This document shows, in pieces, positions 44,909 to 52,300 of a stretch of DNA of 64,000 nt (its first letter is position 1; each line of letters starts with the position of its first letter). This stretch comes from Candidatus Latescibacterota bacterium (GTDB lineage Bacteria; Latescibacterota; UBA2968; UBA8231). Location of the stretch: positions 2,656,001 through 2,720,000 of the forward strand of contig OZ242318.1 in the NCBI GenBank assembly GCA_965208105.1, in the 5' to 3' direction. Below the pieces are notes generated by a model that saw only the letters and a program-made list of their open reading frames with translations, was not told the origin of the DNA and searched no databases. The position numbers and the translations under genes are program-made.

Positions 44909-45322
44909 GGTTCCGGGCTCCTTGTTGTGTTTGTGCAGCACGGTGCCGGCAACGGGAGGATTGCGGCTGTTCAACCTTGATTTTCCCGGTTAATATAGGA
45001 GATTTGCCGGCGAAATCCACTCGGCTGCTCCGGTTGCCTGCTGCCCTCTTCTGGCTTTCCGGCCCGCTGCCGAACCGAATTCACCCAACCCTGCCGGGAA
45101 GTCGGCAACGCGGCAGCCGGGCTGTTTTCGGCGCTTGATCAATCTGGGGCCGGTCCTATGTTTCCCGGAGTGACGCGTACCGAGCCCTGGAGTAGATTGC
45201 ATGGACCCATTGGAGGTGGCCGGTCCCCAATTGCGGCATGCGGTGACCGTGGGCCTGGCCGCAGGCTCGCCGCCCGCTGCTGGATCTCGAGCCAAACCCC
45301 GCAAGGATAAATGGAGGCATGA

Positions 45323-45796
45323 ATGTGGTCGCGGATTTCGGCGTCTGTGATGATCGCCGCTTTGTGGGGCTGCGCGGACAGGGCGGAAATCGGTGAAACC
45401 GCAGCCTATGTCGCCCGGGTGAAGAAACTCCACCATTACAACCAGGAGATCCAGACCCGCATCGACTACTTCGCCGACCTCCATCTCGATGCCGGAGAAG
45501 CAGAGATGGAATCCGTGCGCACCTTGATTGAAGATTACGCCAGGGAGGTGAAATTATTGGGGGGACCCGATGATCCGGCTCTCCGGAGAATTCACGAACT
45601 GTACGTCCGCTCCCTCGAGGAATTCCTGGATCCGGGCAAGGATCGATCGGAGGGACCTGGGCAGCGGCGCCGTGCAGTCGCCCCAGGGTTGCGGCAGTTG
45701 CGGCGGAATATCAGAGACCTGGTTCACCCGGGTTTAAGGGTGCTGCTGGCGCGACGCAACCTGGATGGGGACGAATACGATTTGCGATGGCCCTAG
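45323..45796 (+). CDS. Hypothetical lipoprotein
   Basis: RBS GGAGG and lipobox LWGC. Its stop TAG (45794-45796) is the MITE/IS insertion point. Confidence 0.65.
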   Translation: MWSRISASVMIAALWGCADRAEIGETAAYVARVKKLHHYNQEIQTRIDYFADLHLDAGEAEMESVRTLIEDYAREVKLLGGPDDPALRRIHELYVRSLEEFLDPGKDRSEGPGQRRRAVAPGLRQLRRNIRDLVHPGLRVLLARRNLDGDEYDLRWP

Positions 45797-45910
45797 ACCT
45801 TATGTATTGACGGAGATATGAAAGACCTCCTCCGATTTCGGTTTTCGGGGGTTATCTTTGGGAAAACGGAGTTCACCCAAAGACCTATCCCCAGCGAAAA
45901 GGAGGAGGCC

Positions 45911-47050
45911 ATGCGTAAATCTACGAAATTCGTCGCCTTGGACATACATAAAGATTCGATCACCGTCGCCCTGGCCGGTGAAGGCCTCCAAGGGCCAAAG
46001 CTGTATGGAACGATACCGTCTACGGGCGCTGCGTTGTCCAAGCTGGCGGGCCAACTGGCCCGTGGTGGGACCTCGTTGCGGTTTTGCTACGAGGCCGGAC
46101 CCTGCGGCTACGGCGTCTACCGTCAGCTCACAGCCCTGGGGCACGCCTGCACGGTGGTGGCGCCCTCGCTGATCCCGCGTCGGCCGGGCGACCGCATCAA
46201 GACCGACCGCCGCGATGCTGTGTCTCTGGTGCGGCTTTTCCAACACGGCGAGTTGACCCCCGTGTGGGTGCCCGACGAAGCGCAGGAGGCGATGCGCGAT
46301 CTGGAGCGCTGCCGGGAAGACTTCAAGCACGCCGAGCGCCGCGTGCGCCAGCGGCTGAACAGCTTCTTGCAGCGCCACGGCCGGATCTACTCCGGGCGCA
46401 GTCGCTGGACCCAAGCCCACTTTCGCTGGCTGCAGACCCAGCGCTTCGATCATCCGGCCCAGCAGATCGTCTTTCAGGAATACGTGGACGCGGTACAGGA
46501 AGCCCAAGGTCGGATCCAGGGGTTGGACCAGGCCCTGCAGCAGGCGCTGGAGGGATGGTCTTTGGAAGGGGAGACGCGGGCTATGAGGGCGCTGCGCGGG
46601 GTAGACACGCTCACCGCGGTTACGACCCTGGCCGAGTTGGGGGACCTCACCCGCTTTGACTCGCCGCGCCAACTGATGGCCTTCGTCGGTCTGGTCCCCA
46701 GCGAGCATTCCAGCGGCTCCCGCCAAAAGCGAGGGGCGATCACCAAGGCGGGCAACGCCCACGTGCGGCGCGTGCTGGTGGAAGCGGCCTGGTGCTATCG
46801 CTTTCCCGCCCGCAAGACGGCCGCCTTGCAACGACGCGCCGAACAGACCGCACCCCCCATACAGGCCATCGCCTGGAAGGCACAGAAACGCCTGTGTGGA
46901 CGCTATCGACGGCTGAGTGGGCGAGGGATGCCGAAGAACAAGGTGTGCTGCGCGATCGCGCGGGAGCTTTTGGGTTTCATCTGGGCCATCGCCTGGGAGC
47001 AGAAACGCCCCGGCCGCCTCGTGGCCAGGAGACCTCGGATCGCCGCCTGA
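45911..47050 (+). CDS. IS110 family DEDD recombinase/transposase (379 aa)
   Basis: RBS GGAGGAGG. ALDIHK, YEAG and KTDRRDA (DEDD), plus GLVPSEHSSG in the C-terminal Tnp domain. Intact frame. Confidence 0.95.
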   Translation: MRKSTKFVALDIHKDSITVALAGEGLQGPKLYGTIPSTGAALSKLAGQLARGGTSLRFCYEAGPCGYGVYRQLTALGHACTVVAPSLIPRRPGDRIKTDRRDAVSLVRLFQHGELTPVWVPDEAQEAMRDLERCREDFKHAERRVRQRLNSFLQRHGRIYSGRSRWTQAHFRWLQTQRFDHPAQQIVFQEYVDAVQEAQGRIQGLDQALQQALEGWSLEGETRAMRALRGVDTLTAVTTLAELGDLTRFDSPRQLMAFVGLVPSEHSSGSRQKRGAITKAGNAHVRRVLVEAAWCYRFPARKTAALQRRAEQTAPPIQAIAWKAQKRLCGRYRRLSGRGMPKNKVCCAIARELLGFIWAIAWEQKRPGRLVARRPRIAA

Positions 47051-47103
47051 TAAGCTCATCGTCTCAGAAGCCGGCATAGGACCTTTGCTCATGTAAATCG
47101 AAA

Positions 47104-47274
47104 CGGGACAGAAGGGACCGGTCAGGAGAATCCTCGAAGACACTATGAGGCGCCTTTTCAGGCTGACCCTCGACCATAGACTGAGGCCGCTCCGCGACGC
47201 ACCCAGGACAGGCGGTAGCCAACCCGCGAATATCAGTCGGATCAACCGTCGCTACAGCGTCCCTTCTGTTGCCG
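47104..47274 (+). ncRNA. Putative bridge RNA / seekRNA of the IS1111-type element
   Basis: An 11-bp closing stem (47108-47118 with 47259-47269) encloses two internal-loop hairpins. The loops contain GACACTA (reverse complement of target TAGTGTC), CCATAG (vs target CCCTAG) and ATATCAG (donor end). Confidence 0.72.
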
Positions 47275-47345
47275 AACAAACTCATGCAAAGATAACACCC
47301 GAAATGACCACCCCGGAGGGGGTTGACAACCGTCAATACATATCA

Positions 47346-47507
47346 GTGTCCCGTCGCAGAGATAGGTTGACGCAATTGGGCCGCCGAGGCGCCCGGCTCA
47401 CAAGGCGCCTGAGCGAGTCGTACCAGTGGTGTACGGCGAGTGAAGGCAACGCCGTGAGCCGGGATGGATCGGGGGAATAATGGCGACATATCTCTGCGAC
47501 GGGACAC
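47346..47507. mobile_element. 162-bp MITE, copy 2 (left TA junction interrupted by the IS110 element)
   Basis: 19-bp perfect TIR gtgtcccgtcgcagagata. Same length and orientation as copy 1. The right flank reads TG instead of TA. Confidence 0.9.
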
Positions 47508-47517
47508 TGGCAGATTA

Positions 47518-48999
47518 TCAGGGAAGCAGGCGAGGTCGGATGAGAGGTACCCGGAATTGCAGTGCGGACATGAGACCGCTATAGAGAAAGCCGGCGTGGA
47601 AGAGCAGAAGGAAAGGCAGACCCAGGTAGAGATCGACCGACCATGCGCTGTAGAGAATGAAGCCGAAGTAGACGGCCATGGACAACTCGAGGAAGGCCTG
47701 CGCGTTTCTGCGAGCGCTGTATTTCCATTTCCTGACCGAGCTGTCCCGGTGAACCACTCCGTATTTGGGAGTGCGTCTGAAATCGCTCTTATGGCCGATC
47801 AACCCCTCGACCACCGCCCGGGAGTTGTTGATGCACAGGCTCATCCCCAGGGCCATCAGCAAGGGCAGATACTTGATCTGTGCCTTCCAGTTGGAATAGA
47901 GAGCCCGCTGTGAGGCAATGTAAAAACCGGAGATGGCCATGGTCGCCAGGGTGAACAGGGGCAGGTCGACGATGAGCAAGCGCTCCCACCCCAGGTGTGA
48001 ACGGATATTCACCACCGGCAGGCTCAGCAGGGCCACCAGGAGCATCAGGATATAGCAGATGTTGGTGGTGAGATGGAAAGTCGCCTCGATTTTCACCCTG
48101 AGGGGGAAGCTGCTGCCCCAGATTCGCGGCAGCAGCTTCTTTGCCGTCTGCGCCGAACCTTTGGTCCAGCGGTGCTGCTGCAACTTGAAGGCGTTTATTT
48201 CGACGGGGATTTCTCCAGGAACCGAAATCTGGGGCACATAGAGAAACCTCCAGCCTGCCAGTTGGGCCCTGTAGCTCAGGTCCAGGTCCTCGGTAAGGGT
48301 ATCGTGCTGCCAACCTCCGGCATCGACGATTGCCCGCTTCCTCCAGATGCCGGCGGTGCCGTTGAAATTGAAGAAGCGACCGGAGCGGTTGCGCGCCGTG
48401 TGCTCGATCATGAAGTGGCCGTCGAGGAAAATCGATTGTATTCGGGTCAGCAGGGAGTAACGGCGGTTGAGATGGCTCCAGCGCATCTGCACCATCCCGA
48501 TCCGGGGATCGGTGAAATAGTGGATGACCTCGTGCAGAATCCCGGGTGGAGGAACGAAGTCGGCGTCGAAGATGAGAACAAACTCCCCCTTGGCCTTTTC
48601 AAGGCCGGCCGCCAGGGCTCCGGCCTTGAAACCCCTGCGCGAACCGCGGTTCATGTACTCGATGTCGAGCCCCTTGCCGGCGAGGCGGCGGGTAATTTCG
48701 CGGGCCTTCTCACAGGTCTCGTCCCGGGAGTCGTCCAGGACCTGTATTTGCAAGCGGTCGCTGGGATATTCGATTCTGCTTACCGCTCCAAGAAGTCGTT
48801 CTACGACGTGAAGCTCGTTGTAGAGGGGAAGTTGAATGGTGACGGAGGGCAGGGTTTCGAAGCGCTCGCGGGGAAGAACGGGAGCGTCCTGGTGCTTGTA
48901 GAACAAGTGCAGAATCAGGTAGCGGTGGGCACCATAAATAGATAGCAGGCCTATCACCATGCAGTATAGGATCAGGATGGAACTTTCCCAGAATGTCAT
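47518..48999 (-). CDS. Processive GT2 glycosyltransferase (cellulose-synthase-like)
   Basis: QVLDDS, FKAGAL, FDADF, TEDLD and QQHRW (D,D,D,QxxRW) plus TM helices. Confidence 0.9.
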   Translation of the reverse strand: MTFWESSILILYCMVIGLLSIYGAHRYLILHLFYKHQDAPVLPRERFETLPSVTIQLPLYNELHVVERLLGAVSRIEYPSDRLQIQVLDDSRDETCEKAREITRRLAGKGLDIEYMNRGSRRGFKAGALAAGLEKAKGEFVLIFDADFVPPPGILHEVIHYFTDPRIGMVQMRWSHLNRRYSLLTRIQSIFLDGHFMIEHTARNRSGRFFNFNGTAGIWRKRAIVDAGGWQHDTLTEDLDLSYRAQLAGWRFLYVPQISVPGEIPVEINAFKLQQHRWTKGSAQTAKKLLPRIWGSSFPLRVKIEATFHLTTNICYILMLLVALLSLPVVNIRSHLGWERLLIVDLPLFTLATMAISGFYIASQRALYSNWKAQIKYLPLLMALGMSLCINNSRAVVEGLIGHKSDFRRTPKYGVVHRDSSVRKWKYSARRNAQAFLELSMAVYFGFILYSAWSVDLYLGLPFLLLFHAGFLYSGLMSALQFRVPLIRPRLLP

Positions 49000-49193
49000 C
49001 TTTCTATCATGGGAAATGAGGTGTGGATAGTGTCCCCTCCCGATACTTCCATGCGGCTACCCGGCAACGGCATCCTGACCGGAGGCGCGGGGCTGATCCG
49101 CCCGAATTCATCAACGCGGCTCCTCCGCGCGCCCCGCATGCCTGGCGTCTTCAGCCGGTCAGATTCTGCAGCTATTCCCGAGGCGACGCCCTA

Positions 49194-49355
49194 GTGTCCC
49201 GTCGCAGAGATATGTTGCCATTATTCCGCCGATCCATCCCGGCTCACGGCGTTGCCTTCCCTCGCCGTACACCACTGGTACGACTCGCTCAGGCGCCTTG
49301 TGAGCCGGGCGCCTCGGCGGCCCAATTGCGTCAACCTATCTCTGCGACGGGACAC
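49194..49355. mobile_element. 162-bp MITE, copy 3 (inverted relative to copies 1 and 2)
   Basis: 19-bp perfect TIR flanked by TA (49192-93) and TA (49356-57). The reconstructed empty site is CTAG. Confidence 0.92.
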
Positions 49356-52300
49356 TAGGCGGCGCGGCCGCAGCATTTTTTGAACTTCTTTCCGCTGCCA
49401 CAGGGACACGGCGCGTTGCGGCCCACTTTGGGCTGGGCACGCACCGGTTGGCGCACGGCCGGTGCCTCCCGGGCGCTGCCCGACGCGGAGATCCGGCTAT
49501 CGTTGCGGGCGGTGCCAGGGCTGGCCGGAGTGCTGCCGAAACCCAGGTTTGTAGCCTCGCGATGGGTGGAGCTGTAGTCACCGGCGGGAATCTGGCGCTG
49601 GCCCAGGTCAGTGGCATCAAAATCGATACGCAGCCTGAAGATGTGCCGCAGGGTCTCCTGCTCGATCCTGGCGATCAGACTTTCGAAGAGATCGTATGCC
49701 CCTTTCTTGTACTCGATCAGGGGGTTTTTGCCCCCCACGCCGGCAAAGCCCACACCCTCCTTGAGCTCGTCCATTTCATACAGGTGCTCCTGCCAGCATG
49801 TATCGATGGTGTGGAGCACGATGGCCTTCTCCACCTCCCGGAAAGAATCCTCGCCGACCAGATCCAGGCGCCGGCGGTAGGACTCCTGCACGCTGTCGTT
49901 GAGTTGGCTGCGCAACTCGTCGTATGAGATGTTGGCGCGCTCTTCCTCCGCCGTGGGAAGCCCCATGAAAAAGGTATTGCCGATTTCGCCCTGCAGGCCC
50001 TTCCAGTCCCACTCTTCCGAGTAGACCTGTGGATCCACATATCCCTCCAGGCACGAGTCTACCGTGGACTCAACCATCTCGGCGACCTGTTCGGCGGCGG
50101 TATCGTGCTCCAGGAGATCGTTGCGGCGGTTGTAGATGACCTGGCGCTGCTGGTTCATTACGTCGTCGTAGTCGAGCAGGTGCTTGCGGATCTCGAAATT
50201 TCGCGCCTCGACCTTTTTTTGCGCCCGCTGGATGGACCTCGTGACCATCGAGTGCTCGATTACCTCCCCCTCCTCCGCCCCCAGGCGGTCCATGACCGAG
50301 GCGATGCGTTCGGATCCGAAGAGGCGCATCAGATCGTCCTCGAGAGAAAGAAAAAAGCGCGAGGAACCCGGATCGCCCTGGCGGCCGGCTCGACCGCGCA
50401 GCTGTCGGTCGATGCGGCGAGCGTCATGGCGCTCGGTACCGATCACCTGCAAGCCGCACGGGTTCTCAACCAGGTGAGCGCGCAGGGTCTCGCCCGAGGG
50501 CATGCGGTCGTCCAGGGTAAGCGCCGACTCGAGCAGTTGTCGGTCCACCCGGACCACCGAAGGATCCAGCTTGATGTCGGTTCCGCGGCCGGCCATGTTG
50601 GTGGCAATGGTCACGGTGCCGGGTTGTCCGGCCTGGGTGATGATCTGGGCCTCCTTTTCGTGGTAGCGGGCATTGAGGAGCTGATGTTTAACCCCGTTGC
50701 GCGTCAGCATGCGGCTTAGAAGCTCGGAGACCTCCACCGAAATGGTGCCTACGAGTACGGGCAGCTTCAGGTCATGCAGCCGGCCGATCTCGTCGATGAT
50801 CGCATTGTACTTCTCGCGCTTGGTGCGGTAAATCAGATCGTCCATGTCCACCCGGCGGACGGGCCGATTGGTCGGCACGACCACCACTTCAAGATTGTAG
50901 ATCTTGTAGAGCTCCTCCGATTCCGTTTCGGCAGTCCCGGTCATTCCGGCCAGCTTGTCGTACATGCGGAAGAGGTTCTGCAGGGTAATGGTGGCGATTG
51001 TCTGGGTTTCCTGCTGGATCTTGACCCCTTCCTTTGCCTCCAGGGCCTGGTGCAGGCCATCGGAAAAACGCCGCCCCGGCTGCGGCCGGCCGGTCGACTC
51101 GTCGACGATCACCACCCGACCGTCATCCGTGACCATGTACTGGACGTCTTTTTCAAAGAGGGTGTAGGCGCGCATGAGCTGGTTGATATTGTGAACCGCC
51201 TCGCTTTTCCGGGCGTGGTTGCGATAGGCTTCCTCCTCCCCGAGCGCGCGCTCGTCAGGGTCAAGGTTCTCGTCGCGCTGAATTCGGTCGATGTCAGCGC
51301 TGATGTCGGGAAGTATGAAGAGGGCCTGTTCGTCGGGTGAGAGCAAATCCCGCCCCTTGTCGGTCAGATCGATGGTATGGCTCTTCTCGTCGACCACGTA
51401 GTAAAGGGCCTCGTCGAGCTCGCCCATGCGCTTGTCGCGCATGTAGTCGGCTTCCACCCTGGCAATCAGGCGCTTGGTGCCCTCCCCCTGCAGGATCTTC
51501 ATCAGGCGGCGGTTCTTCGGAGCACCGCGCACCGCCCGGAAAAGGTCAATCCCCACATCGTAGTCGTCCTCCTCCTCCAGGCGCTTTTTCTCCGTGTTGG
51601 CGATGACCCTGTTCACCAGGGAAGTCTGGGCACGCAGGAGCTTCTGTACAAGAGGCTTGAGGTCGCCGTAGCGGTTGCTCGATTCCGGCACCGGACCGGA
51701 GATAATCAGGGGGGTGCGCGCATCGTCGATCAGGTTGGAGTCCGCCTCGTCAATGATGGCGAAGTTGAACTCCCGCTGCATTATGTCCTGGCGCCGGGAG
51801 GCCATGTTGTCGTAGAGATAGTGGAAGCCTACCTGGTCCTTGGTGGCGTAGACGATGTCGGCGGCATAGGCTTCCTTCCAGGTAGACTCCTCCCAGGAGT
51901 ACTCCTCGGGGACACCTTCCGGCACGGGCAGGTAATAAGCTTCGGCACCCCCCGTCTGGTGCGCGTCCTGGATAATTCCAACGGACATGCCAAGGAAGTT
52001 GTAGATCGGCCCCATCCACATGGCGTCGCGCTTGGCCAGGTAATTGTTGTGAGTGACCAGGTGGACACCGCGTCCGGACAGGGCATTGAGGTATAGTGGC
52101 ATGGTGGCCACCAGGGTCTTGCCCTCGCCGGTGGCCATCTCGGCTATCTTCCCCTGGTGCAAAACCTCGCCGCCGAAAAGCTGAACGTCGTAGGGGACCA
52201 TTTCCCACTCCATCGTTTCACCCATCACATCCCACTTCCGCCCCAGCAGCCGGCGGCATGTCTCGCGCACGAGGGCGAAGGTGCTGGGCAGAATTTCGTC

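Follow-up and report, generated by a model that had tools for sequence, protein, structure and literature searches.

A Probable Guide RNA Downstream of the Transposase Gene of an IS110/IS1111-Type Insertion Sequence at a MITE Tip in Candidatus Latescibacterota

Introduction

How does an insertion sequence (IS) of the IS110/IS1111 type find one fixed position at the tip of another mobile element? The question is raised by a locus in a Candidatus Latescibacterota bacterium (assembly GCA_965208105.1, contig OZ242318.1, positions 2,656,001–2,720,000 of the forward strand; this whole stretch of 64,000 nucleotides (nt) is the window referred to below), where such an IS (45797–47346) adjoins a miniature inverted-repeat transposable element (MITE). 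A first-pass annotation, made from the letters alone, described a readable bridge RNA or seekRNA at 47104–47274, downstream of the recombinase gene, with guide segments matching the MITE end and the element's own end. Here, we describe the anatomy and conservation of this region, the covariation within its helices, and the covariation of its guide segments with the flanking DNA and with the IS ends in related loci. These comparisons indicate that 47104–47274 is very probably the guide RNA (a bridge RNA or long seekRNA) of the IS.

In the account of IS1111-type elements by Siddiquee et al. (2024; PMC11187229), a non-coding region lies downstream of the transposase gene, and RNAs of ~82–96 nt and ~150 nt are bound to the transposase; in these seekRNAs the top-strand match lies 5′ of the bottom-strand match, and the matches overlap. 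Action of the RNA in trans is shown in the same paper. Durrant et al. (2024; PMC11208160) report a bridge RNA as predicted in the right end of 93% of IS1111 elements, for which reason one was to be expected here, and give a length of 7–17 bp for the subterminal inverted repeats of the group. For IS621, Hiraizumi et al. (2024; PMC11208158) describe two bases next to each 3′ guide that pair with the other DNA partner after strand exchange.

Results

Structure and Conservation of the RNA

The RNA gene (47104–47274, 171 nt, + strand) is delimited by its fold, by a covariance-model match at 47100–47279, and by covariation. All the bases and positions first assigned to the outer stem, the domain stems, and the segments GACACTA, CCATAG, and ATATCAG are present in the sequence. 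The outer stem pairs 47108–47118 with 47259–47269, and between its arms lie a target-binding module (domain 1, 47125–47193, helices 2–5) and a donor-binding module (domain 2, 47194–47252). Domain 1 comprises GGAG 47125–47128/CUCC 47190–47193, CCUC 47132–47135/GAGG 47183–47186, GAGG 47147–47150/CCUC 47168–47171, and the cap GCCT 47152–47155/AGGC 47160–47163; domain 2 comprises GCGACG 47194–47199/CGUCGC 47247–47252 and the hairpin GCGG 47212–47215/CCGC 47224–47227. The minimum free energy structure computed by RNAfold for 47104–47274 reproduces all of these stems except GCGG/CCGC, which is replaced by a neighboring 3-bp hairpin. RNAfold also adds the wobble closing pairs G47136–U47182 and U47146–G47172, so that the symmetric 11 × 11 internal loop proposed for domain 1 can be drawn as described or read as a 9 × 9 loop; the relatives back these two pairs only in part (alignment columns 49/180 and 72/168).

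A covariance model, R1, was built from five sequence variants of this genome and the base pairs of the first-pass annotation, and was searched in 80 related loci found through the protein (53–78% identical; the best 80 of ~580 relatives). Sequence of 200 nt or more beyond the stop codon is available for 75 of these loci; in 73 of them R1 matches the + strand immediately after the transposase gene, 72 times at E ≤ 1.1e-15 and once (L118) at 6e-6, with proteins that share no more than 53–69% identity with that of the window. In the 73-row alignment (64 distinct rows), 94.1% of the 2357 pair cells are paired, compared with 77.4% in shuffled alignments and 37–45% when the columns are slid by 1–3. 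Changes on both sides occur in 28 of 38 pairs and in every one of the seven helices, and none of 500 shuffles reaches any of these measures. The outer stem is changed on both sides in 11/11 pairs, with 95% of its cells paired, and the GCGG/CCGC hairpin that RNAfold replaces alternates with GUGG/CCAC (CG:44, UA:20 at columns 219/233). RNAalifold, applied to a plain MAFFT alignment of 23 diverse members, predicts helices 2–7, and hence both domains, unaided, with compensatory changes in 15 of 27 pairs. Six of the seven helices are recovered in this way; the outer stem, too variable in sequence for MAFFT, is not. In the consensus fold the guide segments lie in internal loops rather than being buried in stems. 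Loci of the L100–L121 type (e.g. L100:2681–2892) form a subfamily with a 20–30 nt insertion, containing an extra hairpin, in the target-domain cap.

That the region acts as DNA, through recombinase-binding sites or an IS-end hairpin, is extremely improbable. Its position in the right-end non-coding part of the IS and the copy of the IS end heptamer that it contains would suit such a role, but the G–U pairs of the alignment fit the + strand (UG:41 at columns 72/168, UG:15 at 18/278, GU:8 at 13/282), and these many G–U and U–G helix pairs would be A–C mismatches on the other strand, which are not favored in duplex DNA. Moreover, the RNA element stops 70 nt before the IS terminus, and homologous systems are reported to act as RNA (Siddiquee et al., 2024, PMC11187229; Durrant et al., 2024, PMC11208160).

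Target Site and Target Loop

The IS is present in 12 copies in the genome (one contig, 4.85 Mb), 11 of them full length and one with an internal deletion. In 12/12 copies the left junction reads ...CTAG|ACCTTATG and the right junction CATATC|AGTG, in identical orientation and without target-site duplication, i.e. insertion is both site specific and orientation specific. AG is assigned as the core because no other sequence is shared between the two junctions. The left half of the target, CTAG (45793–45796, + strand), of which AG (45795–45796) is the core dinucleotide, does not vary among the 12 left junctions. Ten of the 12 copies have the MITE tip (TGTCCCGTCGCAG...) as their right flank, with a single relative orientation throughout, and the remaining two copies lie at the look-alike sites CTAG|TGTT and CTAG|TGGT. 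Unoccupied MITE ends read CTAGTGTCCC, and empty MITE ends carry CTAGTGTC; the target of the IS is CTAG|TGTC at the tip of a MITE of ~162 bp.

The 5′ strand of the domain 1 loop contains GACACUA (47139–47145, + strand), the exact reverse complement of 47344–47350, which would pair with + strand T-AG-TGTC, a site spanning the flanking TA and the first MITE bases. The 3′ strand contains AUAG (47176–47179, + strand; CUAG in 10/12 copies), which corresponds to top-strand CTAG and so would pair with the bottom strand.

Covariation of both strands with the flanks was assessed in the related loci, with loop strands taken from the model alignment and IS ends located by conserved end motifs; most of these ends were seen independently as inverted repeats. 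Of the 73 rows, 49 were usable and 43 non-redundant: 24 were dropped because the flank was missing or because the 5′ strand was misaligned, as happens in L100-type loci owing to their cap insertion, and six duplicates were then removed. The rows L061, L059, and L104, whose end calls are plainly wrong, stayed in, which lowers the observed values. For the 5′ strand, read as its reverse complement, the proportion of loci in agreement is 0.93, 0.98, and 0.86 at T, A, and G and 0.88, 0.88, 0.93, 0.88, 0.53, and 0.26 from +1 to +6 of the flank. Over the six variable positions this strand matches the right flank at 4.37 on average, whereas 5000 permutations of the flanks among loci give 1.74 ± 0.17 and never more than 2.44. 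For the 3′ strand and the left flank, concordance is 0.79 at −4, 0.95 at −3, and 1.0 at the core, with no signal at −5 to −7 (0.26–0.44); the total is 2.81 of 5, against 1.93 ± 0.13 permuted (maximum 2.40). From this profile the target guide of the family is N-T-AG on the left and T-AG plus 4–5 nt on the right, the TAG part being nearly fixed across relatives (0.86–0.98).

GACACUA in the window has exactly the length of the family guide, and the earlier statement that the perfect guide covers only invariant MITE bases fits this family pattern. Of the 5/6 match first claimed for CCATAG, only the part opposite CTAG (−4 to −1) behaves as a guide in the family; the match of CC at 47174–47175 is probably coincidence, given the low concordance at −5 to −7. 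Relatives with other targets include L062 (TAGTACTAC), L058 (TAGGAGCCT), L064 (TAGCGTGCA), and L070 (CAGAACGG), in the last of which a change adjoining the core is matched in both loop strands. Within the genome, the left target guide occurs as CUCUAGAU in nine copies, CCCUAGAU in one, and CCAUAGAC in two (the window copy and that at G000 2923415).

Read on the minus strand, the DNA behind the 5′ target guide (47137–47146) repeats the target sequence (ATAGTGTCTT), except that −4 is A and not C. The AUAG of the window copy (47176–47179) would match that A, which would make the RNA genes of the IS perfect targets in principle. None of the 12 IS copies is inserted into guide-encoding DNA.

Donor Loop and Handshake-like Bases

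In domain 2, the 3′ loop strand contains AUAUCAG (47230–47236, + strand), which repeats the final 5 nt of the IS right end together with the core AG (47340–47346), as the first-pass annotation had noted. The same relation to the locus's own right end and core is found, at 7/7 bases, in 54 of 60 loci, with one or two mismatches in the other six. Where the right end is ATGAGAG (three loci) or ATAACAG (one locus), the RNA heptamer changes alike, giving three heptamer types.

The 5′ loop strand, AGGAC (47205–47209, + strand), is complementary to the core G plus the left end ACCT at four of five bases, with a central A·A mismatch. In nearly all relatives this strand places GUC opposite the core G and the first two left-end bases, followed by 0–2 further nt; an A usually lies opposite the first core base, and the guide base is G in 7/7 loci with C at left-end position 3. 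The fourth guide had been called weak, which the comparison bears out: it is short in the whole family, and in this genome its U is replaced in 12/12 copies. To judge from these sequences, some of the weakness is common to the family and some is particular to the window IS.

The bases that follow the 3′ guides resemble the handshake guides of IS621. The dinucleotide AC (47180–47181, + strand) equals the first two bases of the IS left end (45797–45798). In loop 1, the 3′ strand continues beyond the core with A in 69/69 loci, the left ends of which all start with A, and the second base matches the left end in 18/69. In loop 2, U47237 (+ strand) equals the first base of the right flank (T47347); among 52 non-redundant loci the corresponding base equals flank position +1 in 24 (permutation gives 12.2 ± 2.5), and it does so in 17/17 loci where it is not A, although many of these come from one subfamily and so represent fewer independent events. 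By analogy with IS621, A47180 and U47237 may be regarded as handshake-like.

A 3′ untranslated region element with some other role (in mRNA stability, termination, or translational control of the transposase), its matches to target and ends being incidental, is a very improbable account of these data. The RNA does directly follow the stop codon, it belongs to no Rfam family, and its binding to protein and its guiding function are here read from homologous systems. Against such a role, loop bases covary with flanks and IS ends over dozens of loci with different targets, and no + strand terminator-like site was found between 47050 and 47346, i.e. up to or after the RNA (three sites elsewhere are no more than are found in shuffled sequence). 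Such covariation is not what an untranslated element conserved for its structure alone would show.

The Insertion Sequence and Its Recombinase

The IS (45797–47346, + strand) measures 1550 bp with the right-hand core AG counted in, its junctions being common to the 12 copies. An inverted-repeat search finds exact 13-bp subterminal repeats at 45801–45813 and 47330–47342 (+ strand), each 4 nt inside the respective IS end. An intact open reading frame (ORF) for a 379-residue transposase/recombinase occupies 45911–47050 (+ strand), with a GGAGG motif upstream of its ATG; 114 nt of non-coding DNA precede the gene, whereas 296 nt separate the stop codon (47050) from the IS end.

The protein has an N-terminal DEDD/RuvC-like domain (PF01548, DEDD_Tnp_IS110; E 1.3e-12, 48.2 bits against a curated cut-off of 29) and a C-terminal Tnp domain (PF02371, Transposase_20; E 1.6e-22, 80.1 bits against a curated cut-off of 21.3), and has thousands of homologs of 370–379 residues. 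An alignment of 16 sequences shows no variation at the acidic residues D11, E61, D99, and D102 or at G260, P263, and G269 of the GLxPxxxxSG motif (GLVPSEHSSG in the window protein), and almost none at S264 and S267; these residues were equated with those of IS621 through a published list (Hiraizumi et al., 2024, PMC11208158) and a partial alignment, without structural superposition. Sequence matches in the PDB are to ISCro4 (E 1.7e-8) and to the IS621 recombinase (E 2.1e-5), the latter low and confined to the C-terminal domain.

Upstream, a 157-residue ORF (45323–45796) ends in a TAG stop (45794–45796) that falls within the target CTAG, so that the MITE and IS adjoin its last codon. A 111-residue + strand ORF (47145–47480) overlapping the RNA and the MITE is most likely spurious, because the RNA region covaries.

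IS Copies and the MITE in the Genome

The full-length IS copies are 95.7–99% identical to the window copy, and the 379-residue ORF is kept in 10 of the 11 copies tested; the copy L011 (G000:C1:2923415–2924981, where G000 is this genome) was left out of that count, the start motif not being applicable to it. L011 is 95.7% identical to the window copy overall, yet identical across the last 313 nt, including the rare guide variant, which suggests sequence exchange between copies. Each IS copy has one RNA gene, and the genome has two decayed remnants in addition and no intact orphan RNA gene.

The MITE that provides the target has BLAST bounds of 47345–47508 (strand unassigned) and the terminal inverted repeat GTGTCCCGTCGCAGAGAT. 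It is a genuine repeat family, as had been proposed: there are 89 full-length copies, whose 178 ends read C-T-A-G-TGTCCCGTCGCAGA, each base being conserved in 137–176 ends. Of 179 genomic occurrences of the exact 7-mer TAGTGTC, 97 are free MITE tips, and 13 of the rest carry the full CTAGTGTC. Insertions number 10 among ~107 MITE tips and 0 among those 13 other sites, too few to judge the role of sequence beyond 8 bases. Two further MITE copies within the window, at ~2250–2413 and 49193–49356 (G000 2658250–2658413 and 2705193–2705356), are free of the IS.

At one nested locus (G000:C1:3999575–4001432; L006, L015, L018, and L028), an older, ~85%-alike IS remnant is split by a MITE that sits exactly at the (T)TAG of the remnant's own 3′ target guide; a young IS copy occupies the other tip of the MITE, and the halves of the old RNA gene flank the pair. 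Comparison of these halves with the family consensus suggests that the MITE makes a TA duplication, a reading that comes from this single case, and the MITE proper is probably 47346–47507, flanked by TA. Duplication of TA is typical of IS630/Tc1-mariner-type elements preferring CTAG. Two IS fragments (G000 4001325–4001432 and 3931342–3931510) were considered as products of "half-match" recombination at guide-encoding DNA and rejected on reading both: the first belongs to the older 85%-alike remnant split by the MITE, its other half being the left flank of the IS copy at 3999607, and the second is a decayed IS remnant with small deletions.

In some relatives, too, the right flank opens a small inverted-repeat element (67–244 bp, TAG-flanked): this was seen at 10 of 56 loci, the window included, against 2 of 168 control probes. 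In eight relatives from other phyla (L056, L057, L068, L094, L100, L106, L116, and L117), an inverted copy of the 14 nt that open the right flank lies 67–244 bp downstream, in most cases with TAG directly behind it. These relatives thus also seem to sit at the tips of small inverted-repeat elements.

Expression

Contigs from RNA libraries of three studies, 90–99% alike, cross the transposase stop codon into the RNA (X1 record 6, covering 46763–47228; X3 record 21; X6 record 29). They are compatible with co-transcription of gene and RNA without proving it. In ISEc11 and ISEc21, the joined ends are described as forming a promoter (Siddiquee et al., 2024, PMC11187229). When the right-end/left-end circle junction is computed for the relatives, a promoter of the TTGACA-17-CATCAT type appears in 52/57.

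Evidence against an Intact Guide RNA System

Several observations weigh against the assignment of 47104–47274 as a functional guide RNA. Taken as a single sequence, the RNA folds with no significant stability (z −1.57; 12 of 200 shuffled sequences are as stable or more so), and no Rfam match overlaps the region in a scan of 45000–48000 at E ≤ 10, which gave four chance-level matches elsewhere. The loci L073 and L091 (2/75) have downstream sequence but no R1 match, the 73-row alignment was fitted to the R1 structure, and the motifs used to locate the right ends were selected with the guide variants already in view, a circularity only partly offset by the independent inverted-repeat search. The RNA-library contigs come from other samples, may contain DNA, and are silent on the start, end, strand, and level of the RNA; nothing can be read from their uncovered stretches or from the lack of the neighboring genes. 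A scan of 45600–47600 found no sigma-70-like promoter, and at a threshold of at least 8 of 12 the window IS and L049 have no recognizable junction promoter; their common left end is unlike that of other relatives. Finally, both loops contain a mismatch. A47176 opposes target position −4 (C45793, the invariant C of CTAG), which only the CCAUAGAC version does, and the donor 5′ guide reads GAC instead of GUC, with its A·A mismatch, in 12/12 copies.

The mismatches and the junction could mean that the RNA family is genuine and the IS lineage or the window copy weakened, so that it moves rarely or only with help in trans and is no intact, reprogrammable pair. We consider this unlikely, though it deserves more weight than a role of the region as DNA or as an untranslated regulatory element. 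It is favored by the A47176 mismatch in 2/12 copies, at a position of family concordance 0.79; by the donor GAC where nearly all relatives have GUC; by a junction lacking the promoter computed for 52/57 relatives; and by the reported ability of seekRNA to act in trans (PMC11187229). On the other side, the 12 copies are 95.7–99% identical, and 10/11 of those tested have the full ORF, which argues for recent activity of the lineage despite the donor mismatch; L127 has the same GAC; and the copies with the A47176 variant sit at normal CTAG sites. The A47176 mismatch itself is a derived change of 2/12 copies, the other 10 reading CUAG. The first-pass annotation's "intact" pair is borne out for the ORF and the fold, whereas transcription and activity would follow from homology and no promoter is recognizable at the junction.

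Discussion

Taken as the guide RNA of the IS, the region suggests a mechanism modeled on IS621 and ISEc11, in which transcription, protein binding, a circle intermediate, and catalysis are all expected by homology. The RNA would most likely be the 3′ part of the transposase transcript and be bound by the DEDD recombinase. In the target loop, GACACUA would pair with + strand T-AG-TGTC and (C/A)UAG with the minus strand of CTAG, both overlapping the AG core. In the donor loop, AUAUCAG would pair with the minus strand of the IS right end plus core, and AGGAC, imperfectly, with the core G and left end ACCT of the circularized element. A47180 and U47237, following the core-pairing segments, would match the other partner in the manner of the IS621 handshake guides. 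Recombination at the AG/CT core would then insert the IS, in one orientation and without duplication, between the flanking TA and the tip of the ~162-bp MITE.

The IS resembles ISEc11, ISPa11, and ISKpn4 as described by Siddiquee et al. (2024; PMC11187229) in its downstream non-coding region and in its subterminal inverted repeats with short terminal extensions. As with the IS1111-family seekRNAs in that account, there is no duplication, orientation is fixed, the top-strand match comes first, the matches overlap at the insertion point, the length corresponds to a long form of ~150–170 nt, and the protein has the GLxPxxxxSG motif. In contrast, the transposase has 379 residues rather than 330–350; where PMC11187229 stresses target matches, a second, donor-matching loop is here conserved and covaries with the IS ends; and those seekRNAs were shown by experiment, whereas the window RNA is known from sequence alone. 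Identity to IS4321/IS5075-labeled proteins is 24.6–24.9% over 79% of the query (E about 1e-8). The nearest IS-named protein in a plasmid collection is an "IS110-like element ISEc45 family transposase" from an E. coli plasmid (48% identity over 94% of the query). The proposed fit to the IS1111 group thus holds for the ~170-nt size, the downstream position of the RNA, and the strand order, but, because identity is ~25% to IS4321/IS5075 and 48% to the ISEc45-labeled protein, the label is an architectural assignment and not one of close kinship, the recombinase being distant. An R1 match (24.4 bits, E 1.7e-7) lies right after the stop codon of the ISEc45-labeled gene, with the same helices and, as in the window RNA, a UAGA motif in the 3′ loop strand, although that element is distant in sequence and differs in its ends and target.

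The accounts of IS621 (Durrant et al., 2024, PMC11208160; Hiraizumi et al., 2024, PMC11208158) describe several of the same features: two internal loops for target and donor, one loop strand per DNA strand, an overlapping two-base core (CT there, AG on the strand read here), a long guide in the 5′ and a short one in the 3′ loop strand, handshake-like bases after the 3′ guides, and a recombinase with a DEDD domain and a Ser-containing Tnp domain. Unlike IS621, the window RNA lies 3′ rather than 5′ of the gene, the strand order is reversed if named by transposase direction, and the donor 5′ guide of the window clade as a rule leaves the first core base without a partner (A opposite A). With the strands named by the core (CT on the minus strand of the window), the geometry is that of IS621: the 5′-AG-flank strand is paired with the long 5′ loop strand and the 5′-CT-flank strand with the short 3′ one. 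The reversal would then stem from the direction of the gene relative to the ends.

It is said to have been found by Partridge and Hall in 2003 that IS4321 and IS5075 target the terminal repeats of Tn21-family transposons. IS1111 is reported to insert into QMITE2 of Coxiella (PMC5896051). Like these elements, the window IS homes to one particular position within repeats that belong to a different mobile element, many genome copies of which are occupied; unlike theirs, its site is the junction of TA and MITE terminal repeat rather than an internal palindrome, in another MITE family and host. ISPpu9, as described in PMC12288879, is likewise an IS110-family element in repeats with a small-RNA gene (Ssr9) downstream of the transposase gene; unlike the window genome with its lack of intact orphans, it has extra stand-alone RNA genes.

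It is well supported that the RNA is a genuine guide RNA and a further natural example of the mechanism described in 2024; it is not a new mechanism, and the window RNA leaves what is known of that mechanism unchanged. Somewhat new are points at the level of the clade: the near-fixed TAG anchor, the recurrence of small inverted-repeat elements at the right flank, and the one nested MITE case. We raise as a possibility, which we hold to be somewhat less likely than its converse, that the ISEc45-like clade is specialized to home to the tips of small transposons and that in this genome the relation between MITE and IS may be reciprocal. If so, only the next 4–5 guide bases would change, tracking the first bases of the host's abundant TA/CTAG-flanked MITE, and the preference of the MITE for (C/T)TAG would make the guide-encoding DNA of the IS a MITE target in its turn.

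The value of the locus lies in the fact that target, donor, core, and handshake-like bases are all readable from the sequence, with ~70 relatives that have different targets. These relatives amount to a small natural "reprogramming table" (T-AG plus 4–5 nt; N-T-AG) that could guide the choice of ortholog and guide length for engineering. For the biology of the family, the window shows such an element finding a safe and abundant landing site, with ~97 free MITE tips carrying the exact 7-mer.

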